Source of the DNA: Phycisphaerales bacterium
Lineage (GTDB): Bacteria; Planctomycetota; Phycisphaerae; Phycisphaerales; UBA1924
DNA: 55,844 nt
NCBI GenBank assembly: GCA_020427745.1
Contig: JAGQOC010000076.1
Location: 1-55,844, forward strand
Direction of reading: 5' to 3'
Shown: in pieces, positions 13,582-37,654 of the stretch
Numbering within the stretch: the first letter of the stretch is position 1
Layout: each line of letters begins with the position of its first letter
Program-made: the position numbers and the translations under genes
The notes under the pieces: model-generated
Database searches by the model: none
Seen by the model: the letters and a program-made list of their open reading frames with translations, nothing else
Told to the model about the DNA's origin: nothing

Positions 13582-13648
13582 GATGTGTTCCTCTATGTTG
13601 AAGGCCCGGCACCCGCGTTGGCGGGCACCGGGCGGTTGGTGTGATGGG

Positions 13649-16946: not shown

Positions 16947-16969
16947 TGGTCGTGGAGCCATGGGAATAA

Positions 16970-17929: not shown

Positions 17930-18163
17930 ATGTTGAGCCGAATCACCATCAACGACCGAGGCGCGATCACCATCCCCGCGAGGATGCGTGCTCTCTTCGG
18001 CATCAAGGCTCAGGACGAGCTCATCATCGAGAACACCGATGAGGGGCTGCTGCTGCGCCCGGCGTTCAGCGTCCCCATCGAGATGTACTCCGAGGAGCGC
18101 ATCGAAGAGTTCGCGAGCGGCGAGGATGCCATCGGCGAGATCCTCCCGCCCACAAAGAACTGA
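17930..18163 (+). CDS. vapB: AbrB/SpoVT-type antitoxin (VapB-like)
   Basis: MLSRITINDRGAITIPARMRALFGIKAQDELIIE is a typical SpoVT/AbrB swapped-hairpin motif. It lies directly upstream of a PIN gene. Confidence 0.75.
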   Translation: MLSRITINDRGAITIPARMRALFGIKAQDELIIENTDEGLLLRPAFSVPIEMYSEERIEEFASGEDAIGEILPPTKN

Positions 18164-18178
18164 TCGGGGGCGGCGAGC

Positions 18179-18589: not shown

Positions 18590-18929
18590 CTCGTTCCGCA
18601 GCAGACTGTTCGATAGCTTGCTGACCAAGCTCGATTGCCCGGACACTGACATAGGTCATACCAATCAGAGCGACAATCAGAATCACAGCAATCGCGGCAC
18701 CCGACACCGTGGCCCGCCCCTTCGGCAGATTGATATTTACATGCGCCGAATTGGGGGTGTGCTTATCTACGGTGAGCCCCATTCTGCGGACGATCGAATG
18801 ATTGAAACCACGCACGGATCTTATAGAGTTTCCTCGACAATACAGCGGGTTCTTGTATCCGAGCAGGGCGTCGATGTCTTGGATCGGTTTAGTTCGCCTC
18901 TTCAACTGAGTATGCTTGCTACTAGTCAC
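18576..18929 (-). CDS. Small protein with a C-terminal TM helix, downstream of the RHS immunity candidate
   Basis: GTG start overlaps the stop of the upstream gene (GTGACTAG). Hydrophobic segment AAIAVILIVALIGMTYV. Low GC, like the toxin tip. Confidence 0.35.
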   Translation of the reverse strand: MTSSKHTQLKRRTKPIQDIDALLGYKNPLYCRGNSIRSVRGFNHSIVRRMGLTVDKHTPNSAHVNINLPKGRATVSGAAIAVILIVALIGMTYVSVRAIELGQQAIEQSAAERANDL

Positions 18930-19422
18930 ACTCCTCTAAATATTTTTGAACCGCCTGATACTCTTCTGAATCGTGAAAATCCAATGGGACATCTCTTAGC
19001 AGGTATTGAACAAAATCACATACTTCTTTATCTGTTAGGTCAATCACCCTTTCTTCAATGAGATGAAGAAGGCCACGAACCATCATATCTGGATTTTTAC
19101 CAAACAATCTCGCACAGATTCCCACTTCAAGATATGTCAACTCTGTGGGTGGACTACACGCTGTCAATACCGCGACCACCTCATCATCTTTGATTCTAGA
19201 TGCCCGATTGTAAACCGCCACCATGGCGGCGCTTGTGAGCCTTGAATCATTCTTGTCAATCGCCCAAGCTAAGCCTCTCTCTTTATCATATCTCCCGAAC
19301 AATATGTCGCGCTCTTGAGCGCTCATGGGTGGCGGGGAAGCTATTCTTATCATCGACACAGCTACCCATGGAAGAACCAGGACAACTAAAAGCACTAATG
19401 TTATCAAATATTTTTTTCTCAT
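18922..19422 (-). CDS. Candidate immunity protein for the RHS C-terminal toxin (166 aa, N-terminal TM/signal)
   Basis: Lies immediately downstream of the RHS gene (40-nt gap) and shares its low-GC 3' composition. N-terminus MRKKYLITLVLLVVLVLPWVAV. The function is inferred from position only. Confidence 0.55.
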   Translation of the reverse strand: MRKKYLITLVLLVVLVLPWVAVSMIRIASPPPMSAQERDILFGRYDKERGLAWAIDKNDSRLTSAAMVAVYNRASRIKDDEVVAVLTACSPPTELTYLEVGICARLFGKNPDMMVRGLLHLIEERVIDLTDKEVCDFVQYLLRDVPLDFHDSEEYQAVQKYLEECD

Positions 19423-22400: not shown

Positions 22401-25400
22401 GCTGTATCGTAGAAGAAACTCGTAATATTGGATCCAGTTCCAGCGAGACCAGCCTGCTCAACCATCTCATGCAGAGAAGAGTCCTCATTGAACTCGAAAC
22501 TCGTTGCCTGCACAATCGAACTCGATGGCACAAGACCGCAAGTGGCATTGACTCCGCCATACGAGAATCCATACACACTCTTACTTGCCGAGACAAGTCT
22601 GTCGCATTCATCGTACTCAAAAATCCAATTCCTTAATGTAATCTCCGGGTCGCTTGCCGAGGTATCCATTGAAATTGGTCCGCACATGTATATTGCCGTT
22701 GTATTATGATTTTTATCATAAACATACGATATTTCATTTTCCATTGGATCAACGACCGAACGGATGTGATCAAGCCCGTCATAATTAATCTCAAAAATTC
22801 TCTCTTGTGTTAATCCTTCAGGGTCTTGAATTACAGAATGGATCCGCATGTTTTCGTCGTAAACATATTTAGTGATCTTTGGCACTGAAGACCCGACACC
22901 TTTTGTCTCAAGTATCTTCATATCACGAGAGTCATACTCATATTCGATCTCGTTTCCGGTTGGGTTTCCGTTAACCGCTTCTCCACCAAGATGGTTCACC
23001 AAGTTTTGACCGGCGTCGTATATCCACTGCTCGGACACCATCGCCGGATCCGATACCGGCGCAACCGCCCTGCGACCAATCCCGGAATACTCGCTGACCG
23101 CTGCGGTAAAGACATCCGCTTCGCGCGACGCGATTGTCATGAAATCAAGCTTGTCGTACTCGAAGACCGAAGTAATCGACTTATTCGTAGGAACTAGCTG
23201 CTGACTCCCGTCGAGGTTCAGCGTTTCCTTACGAACAAGGTTGCCATTGCCATCGTAGAAGTTGTCCGCCTGCGCAAAGAGCGTGGTTGAACCACTATCC
23301 CAATTTTGGGTCCGGATGAGTTGTGCGTGCTGGTTGTAGACATACTTGTTCACATCGCCGTCAGGCTCAATAACCTCGATCACATTCCCGATGATGTCGT
23401 AGACATACTCGGTTGTCAGATCCTCACCGTTGACATCGACGCGTTTCTTGTGCAGCCGACCGTAGTTCGCCTCGTCGTTCTGGTTGGTGTAGTACTCATA
23501 CTGGTCCACACGGTGATAGACAACCTCATTGCCATTCGAGTCGAGGATAATCTTGCCTGGATGCGTATGCGTCAGCACTTGACCGTGCGAGTTGTAGGTG
23601 TATTCGTCAATCGCAGAAGCCAGGGACTGCGCCTGAGATGGAGTCGTCTGCATACTCGTCCCGATCGGCAGGTCATGGAACACCGTGAGCAGGTTCCCGG
23701 TGCTCGGATCGTATTCCCTGATGGTCACAAACCCCCGGCCGTCCTTGTACGCCGTCTCGAAACCCTGCGAACCGCATCCACAGCCCGTTGATCCGGAAAT
23801 ATCAAAGTCGTATCGCCATTCTTCGGTAATCGATTCTGAGTTATCCGCAGAAGAGACTGTACGGCTCAGCATCGCGCCGTGCCGACGCGGGTCATCCGCA
23901 TCATCATCGAAAACCATCACGCGATAGTCGCCATTCGCCCGAGTCACCTTCTCGATCTTCCAATGACGGTTCGGTTGCCATGCGGTCGTGTATGATGCCC
24001 AGGGCCCGTTCACTCCGCCGCTCCCGCCCGGGGTCGTCGGACCCGAAGGCAGGCTCTGCACTATACCGTTTGTGTCGTAGTACTTCCATGAGATCACATC
24101 GCCGGTCTGCGGATCGCACACTCCCCAGACCTGCAGATCCGCGTCGGCAACAAAGCCCTCGTACTCTCTCTTCTCCAGAAGCTGGCGATCACGCGGCTGA
24201 TCGGGCTGCCCAGGCTGATCCGTATAGCTTGGCTGCCGAGCAGCGTACTTGAACCGAGTAATCGCCCCCCGGCGATCATTGACCCAGACATAATAATCGT
24301 ACAGTTGCCCATTGTTATCCACCGCACCGCTCGTGTCGGTCACCACATAGTTGTAAGCCGCGTCCCCGTATTGCTGTCGGATCACCCGACCGTTGCTCCG
24401 GTTATGGAACGCGTGCGTGGAGTCGTAGGTGTTCTGGATGATGTCCACACCATTCGGATCGGTGATCTTCGTGAGCATCCCGTGCACAAAGTACTGAGCA
24501 CCGCCCTGTCCGTATTCATACTCCCACACGATCCCGTTCGGGAATCGGGCATGGTCGACGACCCCCCCGTTCTCGATGTACTGGATCGGGAACTCCGGCG
24601 AGTATTCGATCGCGGGCTGGGTCGCCTTGACGAGTTCGGCCTGCCTCCCCACGATATTGCCGTCGTAGTCGTACTCCACCACCCGACCAGCGTGGTCCAC
24701 AATCCGCCAGATTAAGTTGGCTGTATACTGGCCGCTGATCTCGTTGAGCGGCGAGGCGGGGTCGTCATGGTAATAAAAGTTGATCACATGCCCCAGGGTG
24801 TCCGTGGCGGTCGCGATCCGCTCGGCTCCGTTTGAAGTCTCGTAGGTGAAGCTAATCTGGTTCCCGTTCCGATCGGTAATAGTCTCCAATCGGCCCCGGT
24901 AAGGGCTGGGGTTGTCGTTGCCATCGAAAAAGGGAAAGAACTTGTACACGGTCTGGTTCGCATCAATGTAGAGAACAGGATGATGCTGGAGAGTGTATTT
25001 GATGACCGCTTGGTACCCATCATGCTTGTAGTACACCGGCGTTCCGAGCTCAAGATTTGTTGGGGTGTAGGGTTCAAAATGATCGCTCCGACCCGTGCCC
25101 GGGAGAAAAATGATCTCCTCTGGCATGGTTTGATCCACATAGAGTTGTCCAGGATCAGGATTCGAAATGGTAATCGGATTTGTATTGCCAATCACAACCC
25201 GCATGTTGTAGTTGAAATCCCAGTTCATCCCGAGTGGGGCTTTGAGAACCACCTCCTCCGCACCAACATCATGCCAGTAGTTGAACGGATGAACACGAGA
25301 ACTGTGGAAGGAATACAGTCCACTCCGAGAGCGGTACATGCGCTTGATCTCAAAGTCGAGCCCACGACCGGGGATGAAGAGGTCCGTCTGGGCGTGCTGA

Positions 25401-25597
25401 AAATCGCCGGTTGCGAGGTAGATCGGATCCGAGTTGTCCTTGCCTTGATCGCCCTCGTTCCCGCCCTGACCCTCCACGGTCCCGCCCGGCTTCGGGCACG
25501 GCCCGCCCGTGAGGTTGATGTATAGCTCGCCGGCCAGGGTGATGCTCCCGAATGCAAGAACAAGTGAGCAAACGGTTCCGAGAGTGCGCAGATTCAT
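19463..25597 (-). CDS. Secreted RHS/YD-repeat polymorphic toxin (2044 aa)
   Basis: Signal peptide MNLRTLGTVCSLVLAFGSITLAG. Dozens of YD-repeat units (xYxYDxxGN/R). RHS core end LGRFLSRDPLG ... NRDPYGLL, followed by a 208-aa unrecognised C-terminal domain. Confidence 0.9.
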   Translation of the reverse strand: MNLRTLGTVCSLVLAFGSITLAGELYINLTGGPCPKPGGTVEGQGGNEGDQGKDNSDPIYLATGDFQHAQTDLFIPGRGLDFEIKRMYRSRSGLYSFHSSRVHPFNYWHDVGAEEVVLKAPLGMNWDFNYNMRVVIGNTNPITISNPDPGQLYVDQTMPEEIIFLPGTGRSDHFEPYTPTNLELGTPVYYKHDGYQAVIKYTLQHHPVLYIDANQTVYKFFPFFDGNDNPSPYRGRLETITDRNGNQISFTYETSNGAERIATATDTLGHVINFYYHDDPASPLNEISGQYTANLIWRIVDHAGRVVEYDYDGNIVGRQAELVKATQPAIEYSPEFPIQYIENGGVVDHARFPNGIVWEYEYGQGGAQYFVHGMLTKITDPNGVDIIQNTYDSTHAFHNRSNGRVIRQQYGDAAYNYVVTDTSGAVDNNGQLYDYYVWVNDRRGAITRFKYAARQPSYTDQPGQPDQPRDRQLLEKREYEGFVADADLQVWGVCDPQTGDVISWKYYDTNGIVQSLPSGPTTPGGSGGVNGPWASYTTAWQPNRHWKIEKVTRANGDYRVMVFDDDADDPRRHGAMLSRTVSSADNSESITEEWRYDFDISGSTGCGCGSQGFETAYKDGRGFVTIREYDPSTGNLLTVFHDLPIGTSMQTTPSQAQSLASAIDEYTYNSHGQVLTHTHPGKIILDSNGNEVVYHRVDQYEYYTNQNDEANYGRLHKKRVDVNGEDLTTEYVYDIIGNVIEVIEPDGDVNKYVYNQHAQLIRTQNWDSGSTTLFAQADNFYDGNGNLVRKETLNLDGSQQLVPTNKSITSVFEYDKLDFMTIASREADVFTAAVSEYSGIGRRAVAPVSDPAMVSEQWIYDAGQNLVNHLGGEAVNGNPTGNEIEYEYDSRDMKILETKGVGSSVPKITKYVYDENMRIHSVIQDPEGLTQERIFEINYDGLDHIRSVVDPMENEISYVYDKNHNTTAIYMCGPISMDTSASDPEITLRNWIFEYDECDRLVSASKSVYGFSYGGVNATCGLVPSSSIVQATSFEFNEDSSLHEMVEQAGLAGTGSNITSFFYDTAGRLAEVLDGDGNFTQYTYDDDSNLLTTTQTDVISNQGSVEEVFVVTNEFDGFDRLIRVMDGVQNATMMSYDSRSNMVVYVDPKGNTTTYAYDGLNRQLAETRAMTDTGDGSGTSVGTIVRQAEYDDSNRLVKEIDDKGNETAYGYDGANRMTSITMPDGEQYLAQYDHNGNLALYTDARGVETTHSYDLNNRLTQRVINNSVLPDANTVPYITQENFTYDGLGRVRTATNDFTKVIREYDSRSNVVREIQNADAPTFTAASDRIVDYFYDLAGNTTQITYPSGRDVYRKFDDLNRLVGIYNDAAMANDPITEFVYVGDRVQRRNHGNDTQTVYTYNGYTGSSSDPNDFGFGRVASISTVNSNTNVEFDAISFTWDKNQNRTAYEDTGSGMKNRRERSLGYDSANRLISTDVDFPDPLTDYPSPTNNGVTDYTLDGVHNRTAVNGFEGNGAPLGSYTQLGTQVENNQYTFTPRSDAGDWVYAYDENGNLILKAENNEADFTGDYVLDIFDVYAFQDAYTNQDPSADFTGDGEFDVFDVYAFVADYESATNNDLDHHHFSYDFRNQLVRVSIESGTNVVSVVQNAYDPMARRVVESIDLAGNSVLDSRRQFVYGYESLWEVIEQIDLLNSNDVLLTHVFGIGIDDEVSYRIEDLTTAEDFWTHRDDLGSVISLTNESGIVVERYEYGDYGKVRILDASGSPRAGGSVYNIHHLYTGRSAIPGTGLMDYRFRVYLSELGRFLSRDPLGSEDSMNYTQYSLSNSYTNRDPYGLLTDDGPLKLAGGIGPHPAMGTGLKDLRLMPQTWKAYRNLPINNSNMPVVPGTPGARTAAGVEAIEIIWRVARFMGNTVTLWNTQDAIKECALFGGYGVPLLAEKNGSVGIAIVCLADPCEASELASKEADDRYLLDYLDHLHEIDSPIGTFERVVNGGGGAPWRTSVKAYQTLKDLASIYTEECIGDCEDDDPKTSTSDPYGTESSQND

Positions 25598-25790: not shown

Positions 25791-27425
25791 TCAAATCTCA
25801 CATTTCTGACTCAGTATTGGGTTGCTTGTGCGAATCCTTTCGTACTGGTTATTCTGAAACGCATTGAACGCCTGGTCCCATTTCTCCCGCGTCCAGCCTT
25901 CGGCCTGCACGATTTCGAATGGATCGCAGATCCGGTGCTGCTTGGCCACCCTGATGCAGGCGAGCACGAAGCGTTCCTCGTCGGTGAACTCTGCGGGCTC
26001 GGGCTGTGCTCGCCCCCTCCTTCCTGCTGCGGTGTTTCCCGCCCACCGCTCGCGATGAACCGCGCGTTGTTGGGGTCCGGTGAGATGCTCCCGGAGCATC
26101 CTGCTGGCTTGATCCTCATCGGACTGCGTGATGAACCCGTATTTCTGCTCCCGCAATAACCACGCGAACATCGCCCCCGGCTTCCTGCCTCGGCTGCGTG
26201 CTCTCTGAGCCAGCGACAGAAACTCCAGCCTGCCCGCCTCGCTGCTGCTGGCAAGCCCCAGGCCGCAGGCCTGGTCGTGGAGTTTGAGGAGTCGTTCCGT
26301 GTCCGAGAGATCGCGTGGTTGAATGTCGCGGATGTTCGGCGGGCTCGATGGCGGCCTGGGTGCCGCTCCCCTGCCCCGCTTTCTCATCCGAGTCGAGCCT
26401 GTCGAGACACCAGACGGCTTCCGCGTGTGGCGGAGCGTTCTGTTTGTTTGATTCCCCGGTAGGGGAAGAGAACCTGTTTGATCTGGGCTGGCAGATCCGC
26501 CTCCAAACGAGTTGTTCGGGCTGGCAGATCCGGCTGCATTTTGGTCTGTCCCCTCCCCCGCTGTTCGTAGAGTGTGTTCGCCCTGCTCACGATCGTCATC
26601 CAGATGCAGGCCCGTGTGCGACCAGTCGGGCACGATGCGGTCGTGCAGCCCCCACCGGTTCATGGCCCACTGGGAAACATCGAGCGGCTCCAGCCAGCCG
26701 AGTTCGATGAGTGTGTTTCGCGCATCGGTCGCCGCACGCCGCGAGATCCCGAAGTGCTTGCTCACCCACGAGAGCTTGTAGCGCCCGTCGGTGCGGTAGT
26801 CGCGGGTTTCCCGGTGCCAGTACAGCCCGCGGATCAGCACCGCCGTGATCAGGGCGGTGACGCCCTTCGAAAACCCCGCGGCCATCGCGCGGAGCAGCCT
26901 TCTGGGCACCGGGACCGACCGCCGGTTGTTGGGCATGGCGTCGAGCATCGCCCGGAAGCCGGCGATATCCTCGATCTTGATCTCGTCGGCATGCTGCGCG
27001 AACTCGATCGAGTGCGGATTGATGTGGACCAGCCCGAGGCGTGCGAGCCTGCGGATGTCGCCGCGGAGCTCACGCATCGCCTGCCCGCTCCCCTTCCCCC
27101 CGATCAGCCGCGAGCACTCTTCCGTGGTGTAGAGCGGCTTGCGCCCGGGCTTGTCGGCGTCCATGTAGCGGCGCTGCTCGGCAAGCTCGTGGGCCGCGAA
27201 GTACACGCGGTGCTGCCGCCGGGTGATGTGTCCGGTCTGGTAGAGCCACCACGAGAGGGCGAGCTGATGAACAGTGATCCTGCGGAAGCTGCCCTCGATG
27301 CGCGCGGCGCGTTCGCCGATCGATGAGGAACGCCTGTGCGTAGGTCGTTGCTGCTCTGGCTGTGATGCACTGCTCGCTTGCCGCCTGTGTGTGCGTGGTG
27401 CGTGCTGCACGCTTCGGTAGGTCAT
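25791..27425 (-). CDS. Putative plasmid replication initiator-like protein (544 aa)
   Basis: Start at ATG 27425, preceded by GGAGAGGA. Two winged-helix-like segments (IRRLARLGLVHINPHSIEF; ARNTLIELGWLEPLD). Divergent from parA across a 1.1-kb non-coding region. The long 28112-start extension is rejected. Confidence 0.4.
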   Translation of the reverse strand: MTYRSVQHAPRTHRRQASSASQPEQQRPTHRRSSSIGERAARIEGSFRRITVHQLALSWWLYQTGHITRRQHRVYFAAHELAEQRRYMDADKPGRKPLYTTEECSRLIGGKGSGQAMRELRGDIRRLARLGLVHINPHSIEFAQHADEIKIEDIAGFRAMLDAMPNNRRSVPVPRRLLRAMAAGFSKGVTALITAVLIRGLYWHRETRDYRTDGRYKLSWVSKHFGISRRAATDARNTLIELGWLEPLDVSQWAMNRWGLHDRIVPDWSHTGLHLDDDREQGEHTLRTAGEGTDQNAAGSASPNNSFGGGSASPDQTGSLPLPGNQTNRTLRHTRKPSGVSTGSTRMRKRGRGAAPRPPSSPPNIRDIQPRDLSDTERLLKLHDQACGLGLASSSEAGRLEFLSLAQRARSRGRKPGAMFAWLLREQKYGFITQSDEDQASRMLREHLTGPQQRAVHRERWAGNTAAGRRGRAQPEPAEFTDEERFVLACIRVAKQHRICDPFEIVQAEGWTREKWDQAFNAFQNNQYERIRTSNPILSQKCEI

Positions 27426-27530
27426 GTCGGTCCTCTCCGGCGCAAGAAGCAAGTACGCACGCAGCACCAAGGGTCCACCAAAGGCGTTGGTGGTTGACAG
27501 GGCGCAATCGTTCGGGGTAGGCTGGACGCA

Positions 27531-27620
27531 GTCGAATGCGAACCGGCCAGACCCCCTTCCCTCACGGGATCCAGGCCCTGAAGACCGCCCTGCTGAGCTG
27601 GAACTCACGGGCGGTTTTTC
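27531..27620 (+). ncRNA. Speculative small transcript defined by a promoter-like and a terminator-like element
   Basis: TTGACA (27494-27499), N18, TAGGCT (27518-23) upstream. Hairpin ACCGCCC...GGGCGGT plus TTTTT at 27586-27620. No coding potential seen. Confidence 0.2.
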
Positions 27621-27640
27621 ATTGGTGTTCAACAGGCTGC

Positions 27641-27665
27641 ACAGGTTCGAGTCCTGTATTGCCCA
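27641..27665 (+). other. tRNA 3'-half-like sequence (T-arm plus acceptor 3' strand), not a complete tRNA
   Basis: ACAGG-TTCGAGT-CCTGT is a canonical T-stem/T-loop (GGTTCGAGTCC), followed by a 7-nt ATTGCCC and a discriminator-like A. No matching 5' acceptor or D-arm at the expected distance. Confidence 0.5.
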
Positions 27666-28546
27666 TTGTGATGTGCTGCGGTGCTGCTCGTTCGCGCCTC
27701 CTGGTGAATGGTGGCCCCTCCCCCGCACGCGGGACGCGCGCATGAAACCGGAGGGCTGCCCGGGATGGGCACCACCACCGTGCCGTGAGTCGCGTGAGCG
27801 CGTCAAGCGCGGGGATCCGGGCGTCTGGCACGGGTTCCGATTCGGTTCTGCACACCGCCGCATGCCCTGAGCCGAGTAGCCCCGGTCGGCCGGCCCCGCA
27901 CACATTGGGCGGGCCGCCCGGGGTGGGTTGAAGGAGATCGAATGACATCTGTGCGCGCCCTGAGCGCGAATCGGCGTGACCACTCGGTTGGCGATGCGAC
28001 CCGCCCCGCTCGGGAGTGACCGCTCGCGTTGGGCGTGCCGATGCGCACCGATCGGTGCACCCCGCTCGACCGGGGCGGCACGGGGTCGGGAGTCTGGTCG
28101 TGTTGAGCTCAACGCACAAAGCTGTGGATAGATGTGTGGAAGACGCGCGATTGAGTCTCGCTTATACAGGGCCTGGATTGAAGCCGACGGCTCGGATCAA
28201 CAATCACGATCGATGCGATCTCGATTCGGCACGGTGTTCTGATCGCGCCGCAGGGGCAGGGCGTGCGGGTCATGTCGCCGGTGCCCGGGCATCGTGCCCA
28301 TCGCACGCGGGGTATCCCGATCGGCACCGCGCCAGAGGGGTATCGCGCCCGCTGCCCTGTGGACAACACGCACCAGCACCTTGACGGGGGACCGCTTGCT
28401 GTGCCAGGCTTGGATCAGGACCGGACGAGCGGCCCCACACAACCGGGGCATGCCGCGCCGGCCCGATCAAACCGACCACCTTCGCCCGGGGCCACTCGAC
28501 GAGCCCCGAGCGGGAGGAGGGTGGAACACCAACCGGGAGAAGATAC

Positions 28547-29446
28547 ATGGCACGCAAGCCCGCTGAGAAGCAAACTAAAACGAAGCCGACCACCACCGTG
28601 ATTGCCGTCGGCAACCAGAAGGGCGGGGTGGGGAAGACCACCACCGCCGTGAACCTCGCCGCGGCCCTCGGCACGATGGGGAAACGGTCGCTAATCATCG
28701 ATCTGGACGCAAACTGCGGCGCGACGCGGAGCTTCGGCATCCCGCCGGAGAGCTACCTCGGCAGCTTCGAGGTGATGCTCGGCGAGGAGGACCCGGTGAG
28801 CGTGGCGATCGAGACCGACGCGGAGGAGGGGATCGAGCTGCCCGAAGGGGTGGCGCTCATCACCGCCAACCGGAACCTCGAGATTGTCGACAGCGAGCTC
28901 ATCAAGAAGCACCGGCTGGTCGACTACCGCGACTGCCTCCGCAAGCCCATCGAAACGCTGCGTGCATCGGGCAGGTGGGACTACATCTTTCTGGACACCG
29001 CCCCGAACATCCACACGCCCACAGCTGCGGCGTACCGGGTCGCGGAGTGGTTTATCCTGACGGCGACGCCGGATCGATTGGCAATCGACGGGCTCAACGA
29101 CGCGATGAGCGATATCGATACCGTCCGACGGTACAACAACCCGGACCTCAAGCTCCTGGGTGTGGTGCTCTCCCGGGTGAGCCGGAACACCAAGCTCGCC
29201 GGGGAGGTGATCAACTGGGTGGAGGAAGCCTTCAAGGACGCGGGGATCTACGGGGATTTCAGGATCCGCATCAGCAGCACGACAGAGGTACCCAAGGCGC
29301 AGCGGGACGGGCTGACCATCCTGCAGACCAGGCCAAGCCACAAGGTGGCCCTGGAGTACAAGAAGCTGGCGCGAGAGTTCCTCAAGCGGCTCAGGCAGAG
29401 CGAGCAGCCGGCGAAGAAGTCCTCGAAACCCAAACAAGCGGCGTAG
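28547..29446 (+). CDS. parA: ParA/Soj-family partition ATPase
   Basis: Deviant Walker A in VIAVGNQKGGVGKTTTAVNLAAAL, followed by IIDLDANCG and FLDTAP motifs. Confidence 0.9.
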   Translation: MARKPAEKQTKTKPTTTVIAVGNQKGGVGKTTTAVNLAAALGTMGKRSLIIDLDANCGATRSFGIPPESYLGSFEVMLGEEDPVSVAIETDAEEGIELPEGVALITANRNLEIVDSELIKKHRLVDYRDCLRKPIETLRASGRWDYIFLDTAPNIHTPTAAAYRVAEWFILTATPDRLAIDGLNDAMSDIDTVRRYNNPDLKLLGVVLSRVSRNTKLAGEVINWVEEAFKDAGIYGDFRIRISSTTEVPKAQRDGLTILQTRPSHKVALEYKKLAREFLKRLRQSEQPAKKSSKPKQAA

Positions 29447-29455
29447 GGCAGGGCG

Positions 29456-29896
29456 ATGGCGAAGAAACGAGACGCACCCACCGAGAACCCGCTGCTGCGG
29501 AACCGTGTAGGCTCGATCGTGGGCGAGGTGGAGCAGGGGAGGGGACAGACCGCCCCAGTACTGACGGAGCGAGCATTAAAGAAAGCACCAGCCAATCCGA
29601 AACGAGCACCCGGGAAGAAGGGTAGGGAGTACCTGCATGTGAAAACACGGTTTACCAAGGAGGAAGCCGCGGCGATGGATCGGTTCACGCGGACGCTGTC
29701 GGCGTACATGCAGACGAAGCTCTGGGGGAGCGAGGTCACACGGGCGCTGTGGACGATCGCGATCAGGGCGGAAGAACGGCTGGCGGAGATGTCGCACAAT
29801 GCTCCAGCCTTGGAACGACCGAGCAACGGGGACAGGATGGCCTATGCCGAGTTCGAGGACGCGATCGCGGAGTATCTACAGAGGGTCCTGCGTTGA
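29456..29896 (+). CDS. Putative centromere-binding partner of ParA (RHH/ParG-like)
   Basis: Lies 9 nt downstream of parA. Basic disordered N-terminus, then an RHH-like strand-helix LHVKTRFTKEEAAAMDRFTRTLS. Function inferred from position. Confidence 0.45.
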   Translation: MAKKRDAPTENPLLRNRVGSIVGEVEQGRGQTAPVLTERALKKAPANPKRAPGKKGREYLHVKTRFTKEEAAAMDRFTRTLSAYMQTKLWGSEVTRALWTIAIRAEERLAEMSHNAPALERPSNGDRMAYAEFEDAIAEYLQRVLR

Positions 29897-30151
29897 GTAA
29901 TGCACGGCAACAGAGGCCTTCAAATCGCTTACGAAACACCCTGCTGACCGACAGGGGCCTCCGTCATACCTGAGTCAGCGGGACAGTTCCTAAACTATTT
30001 ACGGCCTAGATAGGCCTCTGGAGCTTGGAAACGAGAGTTCTGACTTCGCCGTGAAGCCAGAGTGCGGGTCGGTCCTTAATGTGTATAGCGAATGGTTGTA
30101 TGTCTGTCTGTGCCGATACTCTGCACCATTGACTCCGAGTACAATGCTCCT

Positions 30152-33100
30152 ATGGGAGACAGCGACTCACTCCAAATCCCAGTGGCTCTTCGAAACATGC
30201 TGGAATCCGGCAATGGCGTGCTCTTCGTCGGCGCTGGGATCGGATGGTCCGCGCTTGACGCCCAGGACAATCCGATGCCTGATGGATCCCGACTGGCCGG
30301 AGAGCTCGCGGAGCAGTTTGATATTGACCTAGGTTCATCCGCCGATCTCGCGAAAGCCGCACAAGTCGTGGAGATTCGGCATGGAAGAGAGAAACTTGAA
30401 TCATTCCTTTCGAAACGCCTAACTGGCTTCGAGCCGAATGAACACCTGCGTTGGCTCTTCTCCCTTAGATGGAAGGCGATATTCACTACAAACTATGATT
30501 TCGTCATCCAGCAATGTTACCAGCTTGCACCAAAGCCACCTCAGAAACCTGTGACCGTCAGCTCGGCCCAACGGCTTAGTAATCTAGATCCTCGCTTCGA
30601 TGTTCCGATCTACCATCTACATGGATGCCTGTATGACGGGTCCGAATCGCACATCCTTATCACCGCACAAGACTACGCTGAATTCGCCGAACGACGGCGA
30701 ATGCTCTTTGAACTGCTCAAGCGGGAATGTGCCACGAGCAACATCCTCTATGTCGGCTACAGCAATCAAGACCCGAACTGGTCAATGATCCTCTCCGAAA
30801 TGAGGAGTGAGTTTGCTCCAGCGACTCCACCCACTTCTTTTCGCGTGGCCAAAACGACTGACTCGTTAGATAGAGAGATACTTGCAGCACAGGGTATTGA
30901 GACTCTGGATGCCACAATTGATTCCTTTGCGACCACCGCTTCAGCAGTCGTCGATCTGAATTCGGCTGCCGTAGCCACCTACGACGCCGCACGCAAACAA
31001 GTGCCTTCTGGGTTGGCCTCGGCATTCGATGTCAGCCCCGCCGCCACACTACGACTTCTCAACTCTTGGGAGTTTGTCAATCAAGCCGATTTCAATGGTG
31101 ATCCAAAGACGCTGGAGTTTCTTAAAGGGAATCAACCGAACTGGGCCACAATCGCCCAGGGGCACAGTTTTGCCCGCGATATCGAATCGGTGGTCATGGA
31201 CGAAATCATCGACTTTGCCACAGCTCCGAAGCCGGGGTATCGCTCTCATATCCTACTTGGGGCTGCGGGTTTTGGCATCACGACGGCATTGATGCGCATC
31301 GCATTCGGTATCGTCCAAGAAGACGCCGCCACGGTCCTGCGTTTGAGGCCAGGAGCAACCATCATACGCGGGGATGTTGAGTTCGCGTGCTCGCTCGGAA
31401 AAGGACCCGTGGTGTTTGTCGTTGACAACGCTGCGGATCATGCCGTTTCTATTCATGACGCAGCGGTACATCTGCGCTCACGCCGCCTTGCGCACTTGTT
31501 CTTGTTGGGGGAACGGTTGAATGAATGGCGTGCCGTTTATGCGAGGGTGAAGGCGTCCGAATATGGTGTTGATTCTCTGAGTGAAGTTGAAATCGAGCGC
31601 CTTCTTGATTTCTTGAATGCCCACAACGCACTGAACAAGTTGGAGTATCTCACTCCAGAACTGCGCAAGGCCGCAATTCGAGAAAAACACGACCGCCAAC
31701 TACTTGTTGCGATGAAAGAGACCACGGAGGGAGCTGCGTTCTCAGCAATCATCGAAGACGAGTTTCGTTCTCTAGACTCAGATCGACACAGAAGAATCTA
31801 TGCAATCGTCGCGAGTGCATACTCCGATCGCCGGCTCCTTCGAGATACGCTGCTTGCCGACATTCTCGATCTTACGGTCATCGAGATGTACAAGGCGATA
31901 GACGATTCGCTGGATGGGGTAATCCTATTCGATTGCGTCAATGAAGCCCGTGGCCTCCACGCCGCCCGATGTCGGCATCACGCGATTGCCGAAATCGTCT
32001 GGGAACGCTGTGTACTTCCTGGTGAACGGGAGCAGATTCTCCAAGACCTTGTGCGGAGCCTCAACCTCTACTACCACCAGGATGCCAAGCTGTTTGAAGC
32101 CTTGGTTCGCGATGACCGTCAGGTCGATGGTCTCGGCTCACTGGAAGGGAAGATCAACTTCTTCGAGTGGGCCTGCAAGAAGGATCCCGGGAGTCCCTAT
32201 GTACGCCAGCACTATGCACGCATGCTCCAAAGAGCCGAACGATTCGAACTAGCGCTGTCCCAAATAGAAGCGGCGATCCAGTTGGGTCCGAATACTCGAG
32301 TGCTGTACCACACTAAGGGTGTGATACTGCGCAGCATGGCACTTAAGTCTGAAGGACTTGAAGTCGCGCGTCGTCGTCTGGCGCAAGCGGAAGAATCATT
32401 CCGAGATGCCATCGGCCGTGATCGGCGTGACACCTACGCCTATCAGAGCTTGGCTGAGCTTTACCTAGGCTGGGCACAGCGAACAGACGATCCCTCTGAA
32501 CAGGCAGCCTACCTCGCCAAGTGCGAGGAGACGATTAGCAGTGGACTCTTGAACGCCCGCCAACGAGATGAGCTCTGGATTGTCTCCTCGAAGGTCCAAC
32601 GCTGGATCGGTGACAAACCTGCAGCAATCGAGTCGCTTAAAAAGGCTGGCGCAAGTCCTGTTGCCATGTACCTGCTTGGTCGAGCGTACTTGAACGCGAA
32701 CAAACCTTGGGAGGCCCGCGCAGTCCTCGAGAAAGTCCTTGAGGCCGAGCCAGAGCAGTATCGTGCCGCGATGTGCTACGCGGAGTGCCTCCTGAGGTCC
32801 GGAGAACCGTGTTCACAGGCGCTCGCCGCTCTCAAGCTTGCAGAACTCTATGGGCTGAGAGATCCTGAATTCATTGCCATGTTTGGCGGGCTGCTATTCC
32901 TGACTGAAGAACACTCTGAAGCCGTGAAGGTATTCAACAGAGGCAAACGAGGCGACCTGCCGATTGAGGACCGCCGTCGAATCTCATTCAGGCCAAGTTT
33001 ACAAGAAGACCCTGACAAACCGCTCAGACTAAAAGGGACCGTGGGTGATGTCAGTGCGGGATACCTCTGGCTGCAGGTGCCCGGAATGCCCGGTATATTT

Positions 33101-33205
33101 GCACCGGGAACTCACATTGGTGGACGACCAGTTCGACGGGGGCAGGACATTGAGTTCGATTTAGCTTTCAACGCAGAAGGCGCAATCGGGCTGAACCTCT
33201 CATAG
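30152..33205 (+). CDS. SIR2-like NADase domain fused to an NTPase-like (degenerate P-loop), TPR-like and C-terminal cold-shock/OB-like region (1017 aa); candidate anti-phage protein
   Basis: SIR2_2-type signatures VLFVGAGIG, AIFTTNYD, IYHLHGCL and ILYVGYSNQDPNW. Central GAAGFGITT and VVFVVDNA. TPR-like helices. C-terminus LKGTVGDVSAGYLWLQV...RRGQDIEFDL. Start is at the second ATG. Confidence 0.75.
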   Translation: MGDSDSLQIPVALRNMLESGNGVLFVGAGIGWSALDAQDNPMPDGSRLAGELAEQFDIDLGSSADLAKAAQVVEIRHGREKLESFLSKRLTGFEPNEHLRWLFSLRWKAIFTTNYDFVIQQCYQLAPKPPQKPVTVSSAQRLSNLDPRFDVPIYHLHGCLYDGSESHILITAQDYAEFAERRRMLFELLKRECATSNILYVGYSNQDPNWSMILSEMRSEFAPATPPTSFRVAKTTDSLDREILAAQGIETLDATIDSFATTASAVVDLNSAAVATYDAARKQVPSGLASAFDVSPAATLRLLNSWEFVNQADFNGDPKTLEFLKGNQPNWATIAQGHSFARDIESVVMDEIIDFATAPKPGYRSHILLGAAGFGITTALMRIAFGIVQEDAATVLRLRPGATIIRGDVEFACSLGKGPVVFVVDNAADHAVSIHDAAVHLRSRRLAHLFLLGERLNEWRAVYARVKASEYGVDSLSEVEIERLLDFLNAHNALNKLEYLTPELRKAAIREKHDRQLLVAMKETTEGAAFSAIIEDEFRSLDSDRHRRIYAIVASAYSDRRLLRDTLLADILDLTVIEMYKAIDDSLDGVILFDCVNEARGLHAARCRHHAIAEIVWERCVLPGEREQILQDLVRSLNLYYHQDAKLFEALVRDDRQVDGLGSLEGKINFFEWACKKDPGSPYVRQHYARMLQRAERFELALSQIEAAIQLGPNTRVLYHTKGVILRSMALKSEGLEVARRRLAQAEESFRDAIGRDRRDTYAYQSLAELYLGWAQRTDDPSEQAAYLAKCEETISSGLLNARQRDELWIVSSKVQRWIGDKPAAIESLKKAGASPVAMYLLGRAYLNANKPWEARAVLEKVLEAEPEQYRAAMCYAECLLRSGEPCSQALAALKLAELYGLRDPEFIAMFGGLLFLTEEHSEAVKVFNRGKRGDLPIEDRRRISFRPSLQEDPDKPLRLKGTVGDVSAGYLWLQVPGMPGIFAPGTHIGGRPVRRGQDIEFDLAFNAEGAIGLNLS

Positions 33206-33406
33206 ATCACGCTCCTTTACTCGCTCGCGGGCGGTGGTCTGGGCTATTGGCATGTTGGGTAGTTCAATCGCACCATGTGTTTCCCCGAGTGGTAGGATAT
33301 GATGGAGTTGCGGTGTAAACACTGAAAATCTCCGCACTTATCAAGTGTCTTCCAGGCCAATCGGGATAAAGGATTTGAACTGTAGCTAATCCTAGTAGTA
33401 CCTCAG

Positions 33407-34156
33407 CTAGGGCTCACCGTTACCGTTACTCGTACACAACTTGACGATGTTGTGCTGCCCCGCCGCAGCGATGACCATCGCGCGTTTGACGGACTCCTGC
33501 CCCTTGATCTCCGAGAAATCGATCGGCGCGGACGCGAGCGCGATCATCGACGCGACATCCACCGGCGGGTGCGGCTCCAGCGGTAGCTCGCCGTTGACCA
33601 GCCCGACCACCTCCGCCAGCGTCGATACGCCGAACACGCGGACGCCCCCCACCACAGAGGCTTCCGATGCGTTGGCGATCGGCACGATCACCGCATCCAG
33701 GCCCATCGACCTCGCGAGCTCGGCCATCGCGATGGCTCCCCTGATCGGGCGAACCCGACCGTCCAGCGCGAGCTCCCCCGCGAAGAGCACCCGCCGGGGA
33801 TCGAGCCCACGCTCGTCCTCGAGAAGATCTCCCCCCCCGTTCGGGATCCCGACCGGCGCACGATGGTGGATCACCTGCTGGGCCATCAGCAGCCCCACCG
33901 CGATCGGGAGATCGTACATCGGCCCTTCCTTGCGCACATCCGCGGGCGCAAGGTTGATCAGCGTCCGCCCCAGCGGCATCGGGTACCCGGTGTTCCCGAT
34001 CGCGGCACGGACGCGTTCGAGCGATTCCCGTACCGCGGCGTCCGGAAGCCCGACAATCAGTTCCTTCTGCAGCTGCGCATCGTCCAGATCAATCTCGATC
34101 TCGCAAGGCGTAGCGTCAATACCCTGAAGGATGAAGCTATGGATCTTGGGAACCAT
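33407..34156 (-). pseudogene. comM: Truncated comM/yifB (Mg-chelatase-like AAA+ protein): N-terminal ~235 codons only
   Basis: The N-terminal domain is conserved up to EIKGQESVKRAMVIAAAGQHNI. The expected Walker A (GPPGxGKT) is replaced by VKLCTSNGNGEP and a stop. The DNA left of ~33,445 is lower-GC element sequence. Confidence 0.75.
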
Positions 34157-34328
34157 GCCGATAGAATACCAAACATTCTCGCTGTTTCAAGGGCTTTGTT
34201 TGGGAATTATAGACAAACCGATGAAATCAGGCCTGGAACAGGGGTATCCGAAGATCCCCCTTCAGACACCCGTCTCCCTTGATCCAAAGGATTGACTGCT
34301 ACATGTGTTTCACTTCAGGTACACTCCG

Positions 34329-34967
34329 ATGGATCAAAATTCGACCACCATGCGGCATATGTGCACCAACCCACCGCCCAACCCGGACCTCACCATCCTG
34401 CTCCAACGGGCGTCGGACGGCGATCACGCGGCGACCGACGAACTGCTCCCGATGGTCTACGAGCAGCTCCGCTCGATCGCCCGGGTCCATATGGCGGGCG
34501 AGCGAGCGGAGCACACGCTGCAGGCGACGGCCCTCGTCCACGAGGCGTATGTGCGGATGCTCGGGCCGAGCGAGGCCGCGTTCGAGAACCGCAGGCATTT
34601 CTTCTTCGCTGCCGCGGAGGCAATGCGCCGCATCCTGATCGACCACGCTCGCGCACGCGCGGCCGTCAAACGCGGGGGCCCGAAGCGGCGGAGGGTTGAT
34701 CTGGACATCTCCGCGATCGCGGATCTCGCCAATGAAGACAAATCCGACGAGATCATTGCGCTCGACGACGCACTCCAACGCCTAGAGGGTGAGCGTCCGC
34801 GTATCGCTCGGGTGGTTAAGCTGCGTTTTTATTGCGGCATGAGCATCGACGAGACCGCGGGCATGCTCGGGGTCTCGTCGCGCACGGTGGATCTCGACTG
34901 GAGCTTCGCTCGTGCGTGGCTGTTCCGTGCGCTCTCCGATGACTCCCATAGGGAAGAAACACCATGA
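34329..34967 (+). CDS. ECF-type RNA polymerase sigma factor (ECF sigma family typical of Planctomycetes)
   Basis: LTILLQRASDGDHAATDELLPMVYEQLRSIARVHMAGERAEHTLQATALVHEAYVRML plus a region-4 HTH (MSIDETAGMLGVSSRTVDLDWSFARAWL). The start is uncertain (GTG 34305 / ATG 34329 / 34350). Confidence 0.85.
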   Translation: MDQNSTTMRHMCTNPPPNPDLTILLQRASDGDHAATDELLPMVYEQLRSIARVHMAGERAEHTLQATALVHEAYVRMLGPSEAAFENRRHFFFAAAEAMRRILIDHARARAAVKRGGPKRRRVDLDISAIADLANEDKSDEIIALDDALQRLEGERPRIARVVKLRFYCGMSIDETAGMLGVSSRTVDLDWSFARAWLFRALSDDSHREETP

Positions 34968-37654
34968 ACGAACCGGTCGACCGCGAGCAGGAGATCTTTG
35001 CCGAGGCGCTCGAGCGGAAGCCAGAACTCCGCGCGGCGTATCTTGATAGCGTGTGCGCCGGCGACCCTGAGCTCCGAGAACAGATCGATTCGCTGCTCAG
35101 CGCGATGGACGGCGCGGGCAGCGCGGGGTTTCTCGACCAACCCACCGGGGGGCTGGGCGACACCCCGAACCCCGATGCCCTCAGCAGGGGCTTGGACGAG
35201 GAGCACCCGGGCGCGATCATCGGGCGATACAAACTCGTTTCAGCGATCGGGCAGGGCGGGTTCGGGACGGTCTATAAGGCAGAACAGACCGAGCCGATCC
35301 AACGCGCCGTCGCGCTCAAGATCATCAAGCTCGGGATGGACACGCGACAGGTGATCTCCCGGTTCGAGGCCGAACGCCAGGCGCTCGCGATGATGGACCA
35401 CCCCTCGATCGCCGCGGTCTACGACGCCGGCGCGACCGCCAGCGGACGCCCGTACTTCGTCATGGAGCTCGTCCGCGGCGCGCCGATCACGGTGTTCTGC
35501 GATGAGCGAAAACTCAGCATCCCGGACCGGCTCGCGTTGTTCCAGGATGTCTGTGCCGCGGTCCAGCACGCGCACCAGAAGGGGGTCATCCACCGCGATC
35601 TCAAGCCGAGCAATGTGCTTGTCGGCGAACACGACGGACGCTTCATCCCCAAGGTGATCGACTTCGGGATCGCCAAAGCGACCGGGCCGGGCGTGGAGCC
35701 CGAGGTGACGATGACCGTGCACGGGCGCGCGATCGGCACGCCCGCGTATATGTCACCCGAGCAGGCACGCAGCGACGGCGCGGGGATCGACACGCGGACA
35801 GACATCTATTCCCTCGGCGTGCTGCTCTACGAGTTGCTGACCGGGACGACACCGTTCCTCGACACCGATCTCCGCAGCAAGCCCTACGCGGACATGATCC
35901 AGATGATCACGGACCAGGACCCGCCCAAGCCGAGTGATCGTGTGTCGTCGCTGTCGACGGCCGCGAACACGGACGGGACACGCCAGTTCCGTGGGCCGCT
36001 CGCGAGCGACCTGGACTGGATCGTGATGCGCTGTCTCGAAAAGGACCCGTCACGCCGATACGAAACGGTCAGCGGTCTCGCGGAGGACATCGAGCGTTAT
36101 CTCTCCAACGAACCCGTCAGCGCGCGCCCCCCATCGGGCGCGTACAGGTTCCGCAAGTTTGTCCAGCGGAACCGTGGGCAGGTCATTGCGGGCTCGGCCC
36201 TCCTCGGTGTGCTCCTGCTCGGGATCGCGGGAACCACATGGGGGTTGGTTTGGGCACTCGATGAACGCGCATCCGCCCGGCAGGCCGCGGAGGACGAACT
36301 CGCGGCCCAGATCGCGGCAACAACCGCCGCGGAACAGGCGAAGCTCGAAGCAGAACGTGCAGCACAAGAGGCGGAGACCTCGGAAGAACTCAGCCGGTTC
36401 TTTATCCTCGATGTGCTCTCCGCCGCGGATCCCGCTCGGACGGCCAACCGCGAGTTGACCGTCCGAGAGGCGCTGATGAACGCCTCGGAGAACATCGAGG
36501 GACGCTTCGAGGATCGCCCCGACATCGAAGAAAAGATCCAGAACGCGCTCGGGTACCTCTTCGGTCGTCTCGGGCTGGTCGATCTCGCGGAGAAACACCA
36601 CCGGCGTGAATGGGCCCTGACCGAACAGCAGCGCGGCGAGGACTCCTTCGAAGCCGCACGCATCATGCACAGCGTCGTCGGGGACCTCGCCATGCGCGAG
36701 CAGGACGACGAGGCGATCGAGCTCTCCAAACGACAGCTCAAGATTCTCGACCAGCTCGACACCCCCGAGGCCGCTCAGCTGCGCACAAGGGTAATCGGGA
36801 ATCTCGGTGCCCTGCTCGTCAGGGCGGGGCGGATCGTCGAAGCCGCCCCGATTCTGGAGGACACCCTGCGAACCAAGCGCGAGCTCTACGGCGACAGGCA
36901 CCCAACCACGCTGACAAGCATCGAAGCGATCTCGGTCGTCCTGAGACAGACCGGGGACACCGAGCGTGCGTTGCCGCTCGCGGAGGAGGCATACGACGGG
37001 CAAACCGAAGTCCTGGGCGAGGGTGATCCCCGGACACTCAACTCGCTGGTCAACCTTGCGCAGACCTATACAGCGCTCGATCGGCTTGATGACGCACGGT
37101 CGCTGCTGACTTCCGGTGTGGACCGCGCCCTTGAACGCCTTGGGAATCTGCACCCAACCACGATCTATCTCCGGAACCACGCCGCACTCTCGCTGTTCAA
37201 CCTGGGTGATTTCGAGGGTGCGGAGAAAGAGATCCTCGCGCTGATGCCGGATGTTGAATCGGTGGACCCGGAGATGCTCCAGCAGCAGAGCCGCACGATG
37301 CTCTCGACACTCGCGAGCTGCTCGGTCAAAGAAGGACGCATCGAGGACGCGCTGGAGTCCGCGGAGCGGGCGCTCGCATCCGCGCGCGCGGTCTACCCGG
37401 ATGGGGATATCCGGCTCAGCGATTATCTGAAACTCCGGGGCGACATCCTCCGCGATCTCGAGCGATTCGCGGATGCCGAGGGTGCCCTGCTCGAAGCATG
37501 GAAATGTACGGATCGCGAAGACATCGCGGACGAGCAATCCGGCCCGATCCTCCGATCGATCGTGAGGCTCTACGAGGCTTGGGACGCCTCGGAGCCCGAC
37601 CAGGGACACCGGGAACAGATCGAGCTCTGGCGATCTCGTCTCTCACCCGGCTGA
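34964..37654 (+). CDS. Ser/Thr protein kinase with a TM helix and C-terminal TPR repeats
   Basis: ATGA overlap with the sigma gene. GQGGFGTVYKA, VALKII, HRDLKPSNVLV, DFGIAKA and GTPAYMSPEQ motifs. TM segment VIAGSALLGVLLLGIAGTTWGLVWAL. TPR-like C-terminal half. Confidence 0.9.
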   Translation: MNEPVDREQEIFAEALERKPELRAAYLDSVCAGDPELREQIDSLLSAMDGAGSAGFLDQPTGGLGDTPNPDALSRGLDEEHPGAIIGRYKLVSAIGQGGFGTVYKAEQTEPIQRAVALKIIKLGMDTRQVISRFEAERQALAMMDHPSIAAVYDAGATASGRPYFVMELVRGAPITVFCDERKLSIPDRLALFQDVCAAVQHAHQKGVIHRDLKPSNVLVGEHDGRFIPKVIDFGIAKATGPGVEPEVTMTVHGRAIGTPAYMSPEQARSDGAGIDTRTDIYSLGVLLYELLTGTTPFLDTDLRSKPYADMIQMITDQDPPKPSDRVSSLSTAANTDGTRQFRGPLASDLDWIVMRCLEKDPSRRYETVSGLAEDIERYLSNEPVSARPPSGAYRFRKFVQRNRGQVIAGSALLGVLLLGIAGTTWGLVWALDERASARQAAEDELAAQIAATTAAEQAKLEAERAAQEAETSEELSRFFILDVLSAADPARTANRELTVREALMNASENIEGRFEDRPDIEEKIQNALGYLFGRLGLVDLAEKHHRREWALTEQQRGEDSFEAARIMHSVVGDLAMREQDDEAIELSKRQLKILDQLDTPEAAQLRTRVIGNLGALLVRAGRIVEAAPILEDTLRTKRELYGDRHPTTLTSIEAISVVLRQTGDTERALPLAEEAYDGQTEVLGEGDPRTLNSLVNLAQTYTALDRLDDARSLLTSGVDRALERLGNLHPTTIYLRNHAALSLFNLGDFEGAEKEILALMPDVESVDPEMLQQQSRTMLSTLASCSVKEGRIEDALESAERALASARAVYPDGDIRLSDYLKLRGDILRDLERFADAEGALLEAWKCTDREDIADEQSGPILRSIVRLYEAWDASEPDQGHREQIELWRSRLSPG

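Follow-up and report, generated by a model that had tools for sequence, protein, structure and literature searches.

What kind of protein is encoded by a gene that joins a SIR2 domain, a degenerate P-loop region, helical repeats and a cold-shock-like tail in a single chain at the very edge of a mobile element? The gene lies in a 55,844-nucleotide stretch of DNA from a Phycisphaerales bacterium (GTDB lineage UBA1924; assembly GCA_020427745.1, contig JAGQOC010000076.1, positions 1 to 55,844 of the forward strand), hereafter called the window. It occupies positions 30152..33205 on the plus strand, is complete with 1017 amino acids and a stop codon, and begins with MGDSD. The enclosing open reading frame (ORF) spans 30092..33205 (+) and has a further in-frame ATG upstream at 30092; the start at 30152 is preferred because the homologs begin there. 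A scan for promoters and terminators around the gene found nothing beyond chance. The gene, its start and the four regions described in an initial annotation are all present, and two statements of that annotation, on the missing lysine of the P-loop and on the tail, need correction. The analysis makes it rather likely that the product is a stand-alone Avs-like protein of abortive infection, similar in kind to nucleotide-binding leucine-rich repeat (NLR) proteins, with a SIR2 NADase as effector, a nucleotide-binding oligomerisation domain (NOD) of the nSTAND5 type in the centre, and a tetratricopeptide repeat (TPR) region and a cold-shock domain (CSD) as sensor or lid.

The N-terminal SIR2 domain, of the SIR2_2 type, covers residues ~10-265 (30179..30946, +) and is the predicted NADase effector. 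Pfam SIR2_2 (PF13289) matches residues 109-251 (E = 1e-20, 74.5 bits against a cutoff of 24.5), and the PADLOC ThsA model matches through its SIR2 part only (E = 4e-27, profile positions 15-229 of 478). Among solved SIR2 proteins, the family profile finds SeThsA (7uxt) with E = 2e-25 and also KomC, ThsA and DSR2; the match to the EfAvs5 sequence is limited to residues 9-119, inside SIR2. The motif FVGAGIG begins at residue 25, and G27, G29 and G31 do not vary among 38 full-length homologs. The catalytic Asn114 of AIFTTNYD (codon 30491..30493, +) is present in 38 of 38, and the catalytic His157 of IYHLHG (codon 30620..30622, +) is likewise invariant. The Pfam match and this invariance bear out the SIR2_2 signatures, both catalytic contexts and the GAGIG start pointed out in the initial annotation, and the conserved residues suggest that the domain is a catalytically competent NADase.

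The central region, residues ~300-660 (31049..32131, +), is a NOD of the STAND class (signal transduction ATPases that have numerous domains), composed of a nucleotide-binding domain, a helical domain and a winged helix. Pfam nSTAND_NTPase5 (PF25199) matches residues 322-462 over profile positions 2-140 of 145 with 100.3 bits against a cutoff of 34. The earlier assignment of a STAND-type P-loop is therefore correct, and the NOD is not novel in type, being an already catalogued Pfam family. The Walker A motif GAAGFGITT, residues 370-378 (31259..31285, +), carries Ile376 at the position of the lysine. In a full-length AlphaFold2 model built on 38 homologs (mean predicted local distance difference test (pLDDT) 84.8, predicted template modelling score 0.77), this loop sits between the β strand 363-370 and the helix 376-389 and is P-loop-like. 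A search of the NOD profile against the sequences of solved structures, including SAMD9 and Avs5, gives no match at E ≤ 10 except an ABC ATPase aligned over the P-loop only, and there the isoleucine occupies the lysine position of the canonical GSGKTT. The Walker B region VVFVVDNAAD, residues 420-429 (31409..31438, +), keeps Asp425, and the next residue is Asn, not Asp or Glu. In the model D425 ends the strand 420-425, as Walker B should, so that both the Walker-A-like motif with Ile for Lys and the Walker-B-like VVFVVDNA (residues 420-427) hold up in the model and the alignment.

The change from Lys to Ile cannot be read as a lesion private to this gene, an explanation that was rejected because the lysine is absent clade-wide: the position is Thr in 12 of the 38 homologs, Val in 11, Ile in 8, Met in 4, Ala in 2, Asn in 1 and Lys in none. 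Around it, A372, G373, G375 and T378 are invariant, and Y374 is found in 35 of the 38. The best 150 NOD representatives fall into two score tiers. The upper tier (>340 bits), which includes the clade of this gene, uniformly has [GA]PAGYG[TVIMA][ST]T. The lower tier (176-240 bits) shares the length and the order of SIR2, nSTAND5, TPR and mostly CSD, and has [GA][EHPY]AG[ASGT]GK[ST]. Some 63 sisters among the full-length representatives share this architecture and have retained GK[ST], and Pfam finds SIR2_2 and nSTAND5 (plus TPR, plus CSD) in eight sister proteins. The presence of GK[ST] in the sister clades makes the absence of the lysine a derived state within nSTAND5. One protein, P0189 (1040 amino acids, SIR2-nSTAND5-TPR), has the Walker A GAAGSGIST without Lys or Tyr374. 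Its score puts it in the canonical-lysine tier, and it may represent either an intermediate in evolution or a second, independent case of lysine loss. Effector-swapped relatives were not found, all non-fragment proteins among the best 150 NOD matches carrying SIR2.

A column-by-column comparison of 23 lysine-less with 63 canonical full-length representatives shows what else has changed in the nucleotide pocket. The canonical-lysine sisters, such as P0194 and P0225 (~1030 amino acids), resemble the clade of this gene in Pfam architecture and in the SIR2 catalytic residues, N114 and H157 being kept in 23/23 lysine-less and 62/63 canonical-lysine representatives. R342, R564 and R608-H609 are invariant in both clades. 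Arg455 (31514..31516, +), at the end of the strand 448-455, is kept in 23/23 and 62/63 representatives and may be sensor 1, judging from its position in the secondary structure only. Arg608-His609 (31973..31978, +), just past the β hairpin of the winged helix, may lie where the conserved histidine of the STAND winged-helix domain is expected, as its secondary-structure position and the parallel with SAMD9 H985 and Apaf-1 H438 (PMC13600222) suggest. D425, R455 and R608-H609 are thus retained in the lysine-less clade, whereas the lysine, [RK]381, R382 and R570, all kept in the sisters, are lost; the clade carries Tyr374. No compensating basic residue of the kind seen in SAMD9 has been gained. 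These losses and retentions suggest that the pocket was remodelled in a coordinated way, neither by random decay nor by a SAMD9-type patch. With four conserved basic residues gone, one of them the Walker A lysine, the NOD is not expected to hydrolyse NTP. As far as these residues can tell, it most likely either works without nucleotide or keeps one bound as a static, structural cofactor, like EfAvs5 and SAMD9, whose pockets are better equipped.

The NOD is followed by a TPR-like α-solenoid, residues ~661-939 (32132..32968, +), which is all-helical in the model and is a putative sensor or autoinhibitory module. Pfam TPR_14, TPR_19, TPR_17 and ANAPC3 match between residues 675 and 930, including the stretch 837-868, and TPR-S matches weakly, in agreement with the long TPR-like helical region proposed initially. 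The last region, residues ~958-1015 (33023..33196, +), is a cold-shock-domain-like OB (oligonucleotide/oligosaccharide-binding) fold. Five β strands are predicted at residues 959-1014 with pLDDT 83-94, and a profile made from the C-terminal 78 residues of 30 homologs matches the CspB and CspD structures over the whole domain with E = 9e-7 (CspB) to 1e-5. Pfam CSD (PF00313) scores above its curated cutoff in the sister proteins P0194 and P0225, and the single tail sequence of this protein gives no CSD match in Pfam. The cold-shock strand pattern noted initially thus belongs to a true CSD/OB fold. The accompanying statement that the RNP aromatic residues are lacking is half right: the equivalents of CspB F15 and F17 (RNP1) and F27 (RNP2) are aromatic, namely Y971, W973 and F983 here and Y/F, F and F family-wide, whereas those of K13, H29 and F30 are lost in the family tail.

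Structural kinship to Avs5 and SAMD9 is seen with the full-length model and with the NOD alone. In a Foldseek search of the full model against the PDB, the top match is EfAvs5 (9jap_A, E = 5e-22), together with five human SAMD9 entries (E = 8e-21 to 1.5e-19, TM score 0.36-0.40) that align over ~1,180 columns from SIR2 to OB. The next matches, Avs3 (1e-9), DSR2 (2.5e-9) and ThsA (4e-8), are weaker by at least 11 orders of magnitude. When the NOD is modelled alone (pLDDT 84.8), SAMD9 has the best E-value (3e-11) and EfAvs5 the best superposition (TM score 0.72, root-mean-square deviation 4.6 Å), followed by CED-4/Apaf-1 at about 1e-7 and then by ORC/Cdc6 and plant NLRs. At the sequence level, the family profile reaches solved proteins in the SIR2, TPR and CSD regions only, and the NOD and CSD profiles, searched as hidden Markov models (HMMs) against PDB sequences, give no SAMD9 match. 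DSR1/DSR2 and ThsA (Thoeris) were also considered as assignments and rejected. DSR2 has a homologous SIR2_2-type NADase domain in a SIR2-MID-CTD architecture without an NTPase module, and NCBIfam NF041819 reaches 23.3 bits against a cutoff of 1400, on the SIR2 part only. In ThsA a homologous SIR2, the one part that matches, is joined to a SLOG/STALD sensor. PADLOC and NCBIfam thus support the initial view that the protein is not a standard DSR1/DSR2, ThsA or PADLOC-recognised Avs.

The protein belongs to a large and widespread family. A word-indexed search found 318 collinear homologs of ~1020 amino acids at E ≤ 1e-5, covering 95-100% of the query with 43-58% identity, two close relatives excepted. 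When 1.84 billion representatives were searched exhaustively with an HMM of the NOD region, the result was 1,827 clusters (50% identity) at E ≤ 1e-3 and 385 at E ≤ 1e-30. Members occur in Planctomycetota, Chloroflexota, Acidobacteriota, Actinomycetota, Bacteroidota, Pseudomonadota, Bacillota, Verrucomicrobiota, Desulfobacterota and others, and one protein from a Nitrososphaera metagenome-assembled genome also belongs to the family. A cross-phylum scan with one genome per species found it in at least nine phyla, patchily and mostly at 38-48% identity, a scattered distribution that suggests horizontal transfer. The closest relative, in Phycisphaerales bacterium ac7 (CP159477.1, L006:8001-11047), has 87% amino acid identity and is frameshifted near residues 674-682, where the tblastn match leaves frame 3 for frame 2, which reflects either a pseudogene or a sequencing error. 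Database labels of family members read only "SIR2 family protein", "TPR repeat protein" or "P-loop NTPase", and a literature search found no paper on nSTAND5, PF25199 or this family specifically. The initial annotation had not recognised the combination of domains. In this it was right insofar as no paper on the family was found; the architecture itself is not unprecedented, with Avs5 and SAMD9 as its closest counterparts and an nSTAND5 NOD at its centre.

The gene is a single-gene unit carried as cargo of a mobile element. Its GC content is 0.53-0.56, against 0.61-0.67 in the flanks. The next gene downstream, beyond a non-coding stretch of ~200 bp (33206..33406, no strand assigned) that holds the end of the element, is a truncated comM (33407..34156, -). 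In the comM fragment, the ChlI N-terminal domain (Pfam ChlI, E = 7e-35) is followed by no more than the beginning of the Mg_chelatase ATPase domain, ~35 residues long (profile positions 1-34 only); the translation of its tail shows that the reading frame continues into foreign sequence, and the similarity of comM to the ac7 genome extends to window position 33416. Therefore, the SIR2–NOD gene closes the cargo of an integrative mobilisable element on the side next to comM, and the GC content and the truncated comM agree with its earlier description as low-GC cargo at the element edge, last before the comM junction. In ac7, a 5' fragment of comM lies ~6 kb from the ortholog in an arrangement different from that of the window, so that related comM-targeting islands appear to carry this gene at different positions. 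All-against-all BLAST of the flanking ORFs of 35 loci found no conserved partner gene, the best cluster comprising 5 loci at varying positions. Since no neighbour family recurs, the gene forms a unit of its own, as the initial annotation had proposed.

Evidence from the surroundings of the homologs for a role in defence is moderate. A homolog with 58% identity (P0004, L067:3366-6574) is directly followed by a cluster with a SAVED-HNH protein (a CBASS Cap5-like effector), on an element that, like that of the window, also bears ParA and ArdC. Another homolog adjoins a RES-Xre pair and an E1/E2/JAB cluster, and yet another adjoins VapBC. The 138 flanking ORFs of 32 loci, counted without a control set, include type I restriction-modification methyltransferases (3), MkoA-like helicases (3) and mad2 (6).

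Is the protein an ordinary Avs5 (AVAST type 5), triggered by a phage protein and working through an ATP-bound NOD whose Walker A lysine is essential? Both are single polypeptides that begin with a SIR2 domain bearing the catalytic Asn and His, continue with a STAND NOD and end in helical repeats as the sensor. EfAvs5 is the top full-length Foldseek match and superposes best on the NOD, and a SIR2-P-loop-TPR protein of Desulfobacula (A0A1F9N8W4) shown as a SAMD9 analogue has itself been called "Avs5" (PMC12680541). However, published accounts assign the NOD of Avs5, a SIR2-STAND defence protein made as a single chain, to nSTAND3 (PF20720) (PMC12931631, PMC11897194), and the present NOD is nSTAND5, without a PF20720 match at E ≤ 1 in Pfam. 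According to the same accounts, the Avs5 Walker A GPAGSGKT is intact and essential, since K363A in PaAvs5 and K379A in EfAvs5 abolish defence (PMC12931631, PMC11897194), whereas the clade of this protein never has Lys at that position. The cold-shock/OB tail is a further difference, no CSD tail being described for Avs5 in the passages of these accounts that were consulted. The PADLOC Avs5 profile PDLC02170 gives no match to this protein at E ≤ 1, one sister protein matching weakly in the SIR2 region only, and the sequence similarity to EfAvs5 is confined to the short SIR2 segment mentioned above. NOD family, Walker A lysine and PADLOC profile together rule out membership of Avs5, although architecture and structural similarity fit, and an ordinary Avs5 mode of action is accordingly very improbable. 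By analogy, EfAvs5 is nevertheless the best available working model for activation; it binds ATP without hydrolysis and its SIR2 NADase is activated by filamentation (PMC11897194).

A bacterial member or sister of the SAMD9 family, sharing the SIR2-NOD-TPR-OB core by common descent and having inherited a lysine-less P-loop, would account for other features. The SAMD9 family was dissected computationally as (SAM-AlbA_2)-SIR2-like-STAND P-loop-TPR-OB, with an OB "most similar to cold-shock DNA-binding proteins" and a P-loop GGT/S instead of GKT/S (PMC5445408). Domain order in SAMD9 (PDB 9zjr and related) is thus collinear with that of the present protein over all four domains, both have a cold-shock-like OB and a Walker A without lysine, the full-length Foldseek E-value reaches 8e-21 and the NOD alone gives SAMD9 its best E-value. 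A 2026 survey states that the Avs5 sensor clusters with SAMD9 (PMC12803255), and the bacterial analogues named so far are Avs9 (with AlbA_2) and Avs6 (with PNP) (PMC12680541). Yet the lysine was lost independently of SAMD9, because the loss arose within nSTAND5, where the sisters have GK[ST]. The two P-loops also differ: the motif here is G[TVIM][ST]T with a conserved Tyr374, whereas SAMD9 has GGT/S with an upstream His that replaces the lysine, ATP being stably bound without turnover in the 2026 SAMD9/9L cryo-EM structures (PMC13600222; bioRxiv 10.64898/2026.02.01.703102), and the position five residues upstream of G375 is G, A or S in the family, not His. There is no SAM/AlbA_2 tRNase effector, as SIR2 starts at residue ~10 and Pfam finds no AlbA_2; the SIR2 catalytic residues are kept and presumably make this domain the effector, whereas the SIR2-like domain of SAMD9 is regarded as a non-catalytic scaffold. 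The NOD and CSD profiles, as HMMs against PDB sequences, gave no match to SAMD9 chains, and published analysis favours convergence in the case of Avs9 and SAMD9 (PMC12680541). The absence of AlbA_2 and the different P-loop solution place the protein outside the SAMD9/Avs9 family, and common descent with an inherited lysine-less P-loop is unlikely. Less probable still is a role outside immunity, either as a stress- or nucleic-acid-responsive regulatory sirtuin with deacylase or ADP-ribosyltransferase activity or as a decaying remnant with a dead NTPase. The frameshift in the closest ortholog, the housekeeping surroundings of several homologs, the lack of hypervariability in the sensor region and the classical use of cold-shock domains as RNA chaperone modules would fit such a role. 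Against it, every matching solved SIR2_2-type relative is a defence NADase (ThsA, DSR2, KomC, Avs5), and the patchy phyla, mobile cargo and CBASS-type, RES-Xre, VapBC and restriction-modification neighbours are typical of defence genes. Decay is opposed by strong, uniform purifying selection on all four domains across phyla, and the P-loop glycines, T377/T378 and D425 are still conserved.

The reading of the protein as an Avs-like NADase with a TPR–CSD sensor or lid has several points against it. PADLOC (v2) and NCBIfam place the protein in no defence system, and the defence and NADase roles are predicted for all family members alike. The housekeeping neighbours just mentioned count here as well, and the bulk neighbourhood counts had no control set. 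With no sequence link detected between this NOD and those of SAMD9 and Avs5, the structural resemblance could be convergent. Since no substitute for the lysine was found, the NOD may not bind nucleotide at all, and the SAMD9 analogy, with its upstream His, is not directly transferable to the lysine-less clade. Finally, TPR and CSD are as conserved as the enzyme domains, with 47-57% pairwise identity in every domain; aligned sequences thus lack the hypervariability often seen in arms-race sensors. Such uniform conservation is easier to reconcile with a sensor that recognises nucleic acid or a conserved fold, or with a region that acts mainly within the molecule, than with a fast arms race.

With these points weighed, the interpretation as a stand-alone Avs-like protein leads to the following scheme. 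At rest, the TPR–CSD region would fold back on the NOD and SIR2 and keep the protein closed, much as the TPR-OB region of SAMD9/9L helps to hold the closed, autoinhibited state (PMC13600222; bioRxiv 10.64898/2026.02.01.703102). A ligand derived from infection, possibly a conserved phage protein at the TPRs or single-stranded nucleic acid at the CSD, would release this lock. The NOD and SIR2 may then assemble with their like, whether as dimers, filaments or oligomers of another kind, in the manner of EfAvs5, and the assembled SIR2 domains would hydrolyse NAD+, halting the infected cell and with it the phage. If the NOD is static or nucleotide-independent, control of activation would lie with the sensor, not with nucleotide exchange. 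In this scheme the output is like that of Avs5 and the layout like that of the SAMD9 core. The initial interpretation is thereby partly supported, its domain calls and the single-gene defence candidate standing.

The remaining genes of the element lie to the left of the SIR2–NOD gene. They include a trypsin-like protease (3291-4307), a MobA/VirD2 relaxase (7555-8943, -), ArdC with an ArdcN N-terminal domain and a zincin-like metallopeptidase domain (14550-15530), and an RHS-repeat protein of 2044 amino acids (19463-25597, -; RHS_repeat E = 2e-47, DUF6531), which is probably a polymorphic toxin and lies in the part of the element with the lowest GC content (0.45-0.55). A small ORF just downstream of the RHS gene (18922-19422, -) has no Pfam match and could be an immunity gene. 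An ORF of up to 773 amino acids (25791-28112, -), of which 533 were scanned without a Pfam match, lies upstream of a ParA-like ATPase (28547-29446, +), which is followed by a 146-amino-acid ORF (29456-29896, +) that could be a ParB/ParG-like partner; 25791-28112 and 28547-29896 may together be the replication or partition module of the element. No integrase was identified among the element genes in window positions 2113-18505, where several ORFs have no Pfam match. Searches of the window found neither att repeats nor the other half of comM, so that the element probably extends past the window's left edge. On the host side of the comM fragment, an extracytoplasmic function (ECF) sigma factor (34305-34967, +; Sigma70_ECF E = 4e-57) is followed by an ORF of 896 amino acids (34964-37654, +), whose start overlaps the end of the sigma factor gene and which by eye has a kinase-like HRDLKPSN and a long helical C-terminal region.

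What is new at this locus is a large uncharacterised family, left unlabelled by the profiles of PADLOC v2 and NCBIfam, in which, to judge from the conserved motifs, an active-type SIR2 appears to be joined to the full SAMD9-type NOD-TPR-CSD chassis, and in which the clade of this gene has, independently, dispensed with the Walker A lysine and with other basic residues of the pocket. The gap in annotation amounts to ~1,800 clusters at 50% identity in many phyla. SIR2-STAND proteins (Avs5) and SAMD9/9L are actively studied, and the NOD of SAMD9 is unusual in that it lacks the Walker A lysine and stays ATP-bound. The present family offers a natural experiment, with sister clades that have the lysine and one clade without it and without three basic residues, all in the same layout. 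Comparisons and swaps between the clades could reveal the roles of the P-loop lysine, of nucleotide binding and of the C-terminal OB fold in autoinhibition and activation; the loss of NAD+ would be an easy read-out, and a bacterial system is far more tractable than human SAMD9. A bolder proposal, which we consider doubtful at present, is that SIR2-nSTAND5-TPR-CSD proteins represent the lineage from which, or alongside which, the SAMD9 core arose, a lineage prone to lysine loss, and that the clade of this gene is free of a nucleotide switch, gated by TPR-CSD and possibly reading single-stranded nucleic acid. If so, the silent SIR2-like domain of SAMD9 would be the fossil of an ancestral NAD-depleting effector, and the clade of this gene would provide, beyond SAMD9, a STAND receptor that assembles without any nucleotide switch.

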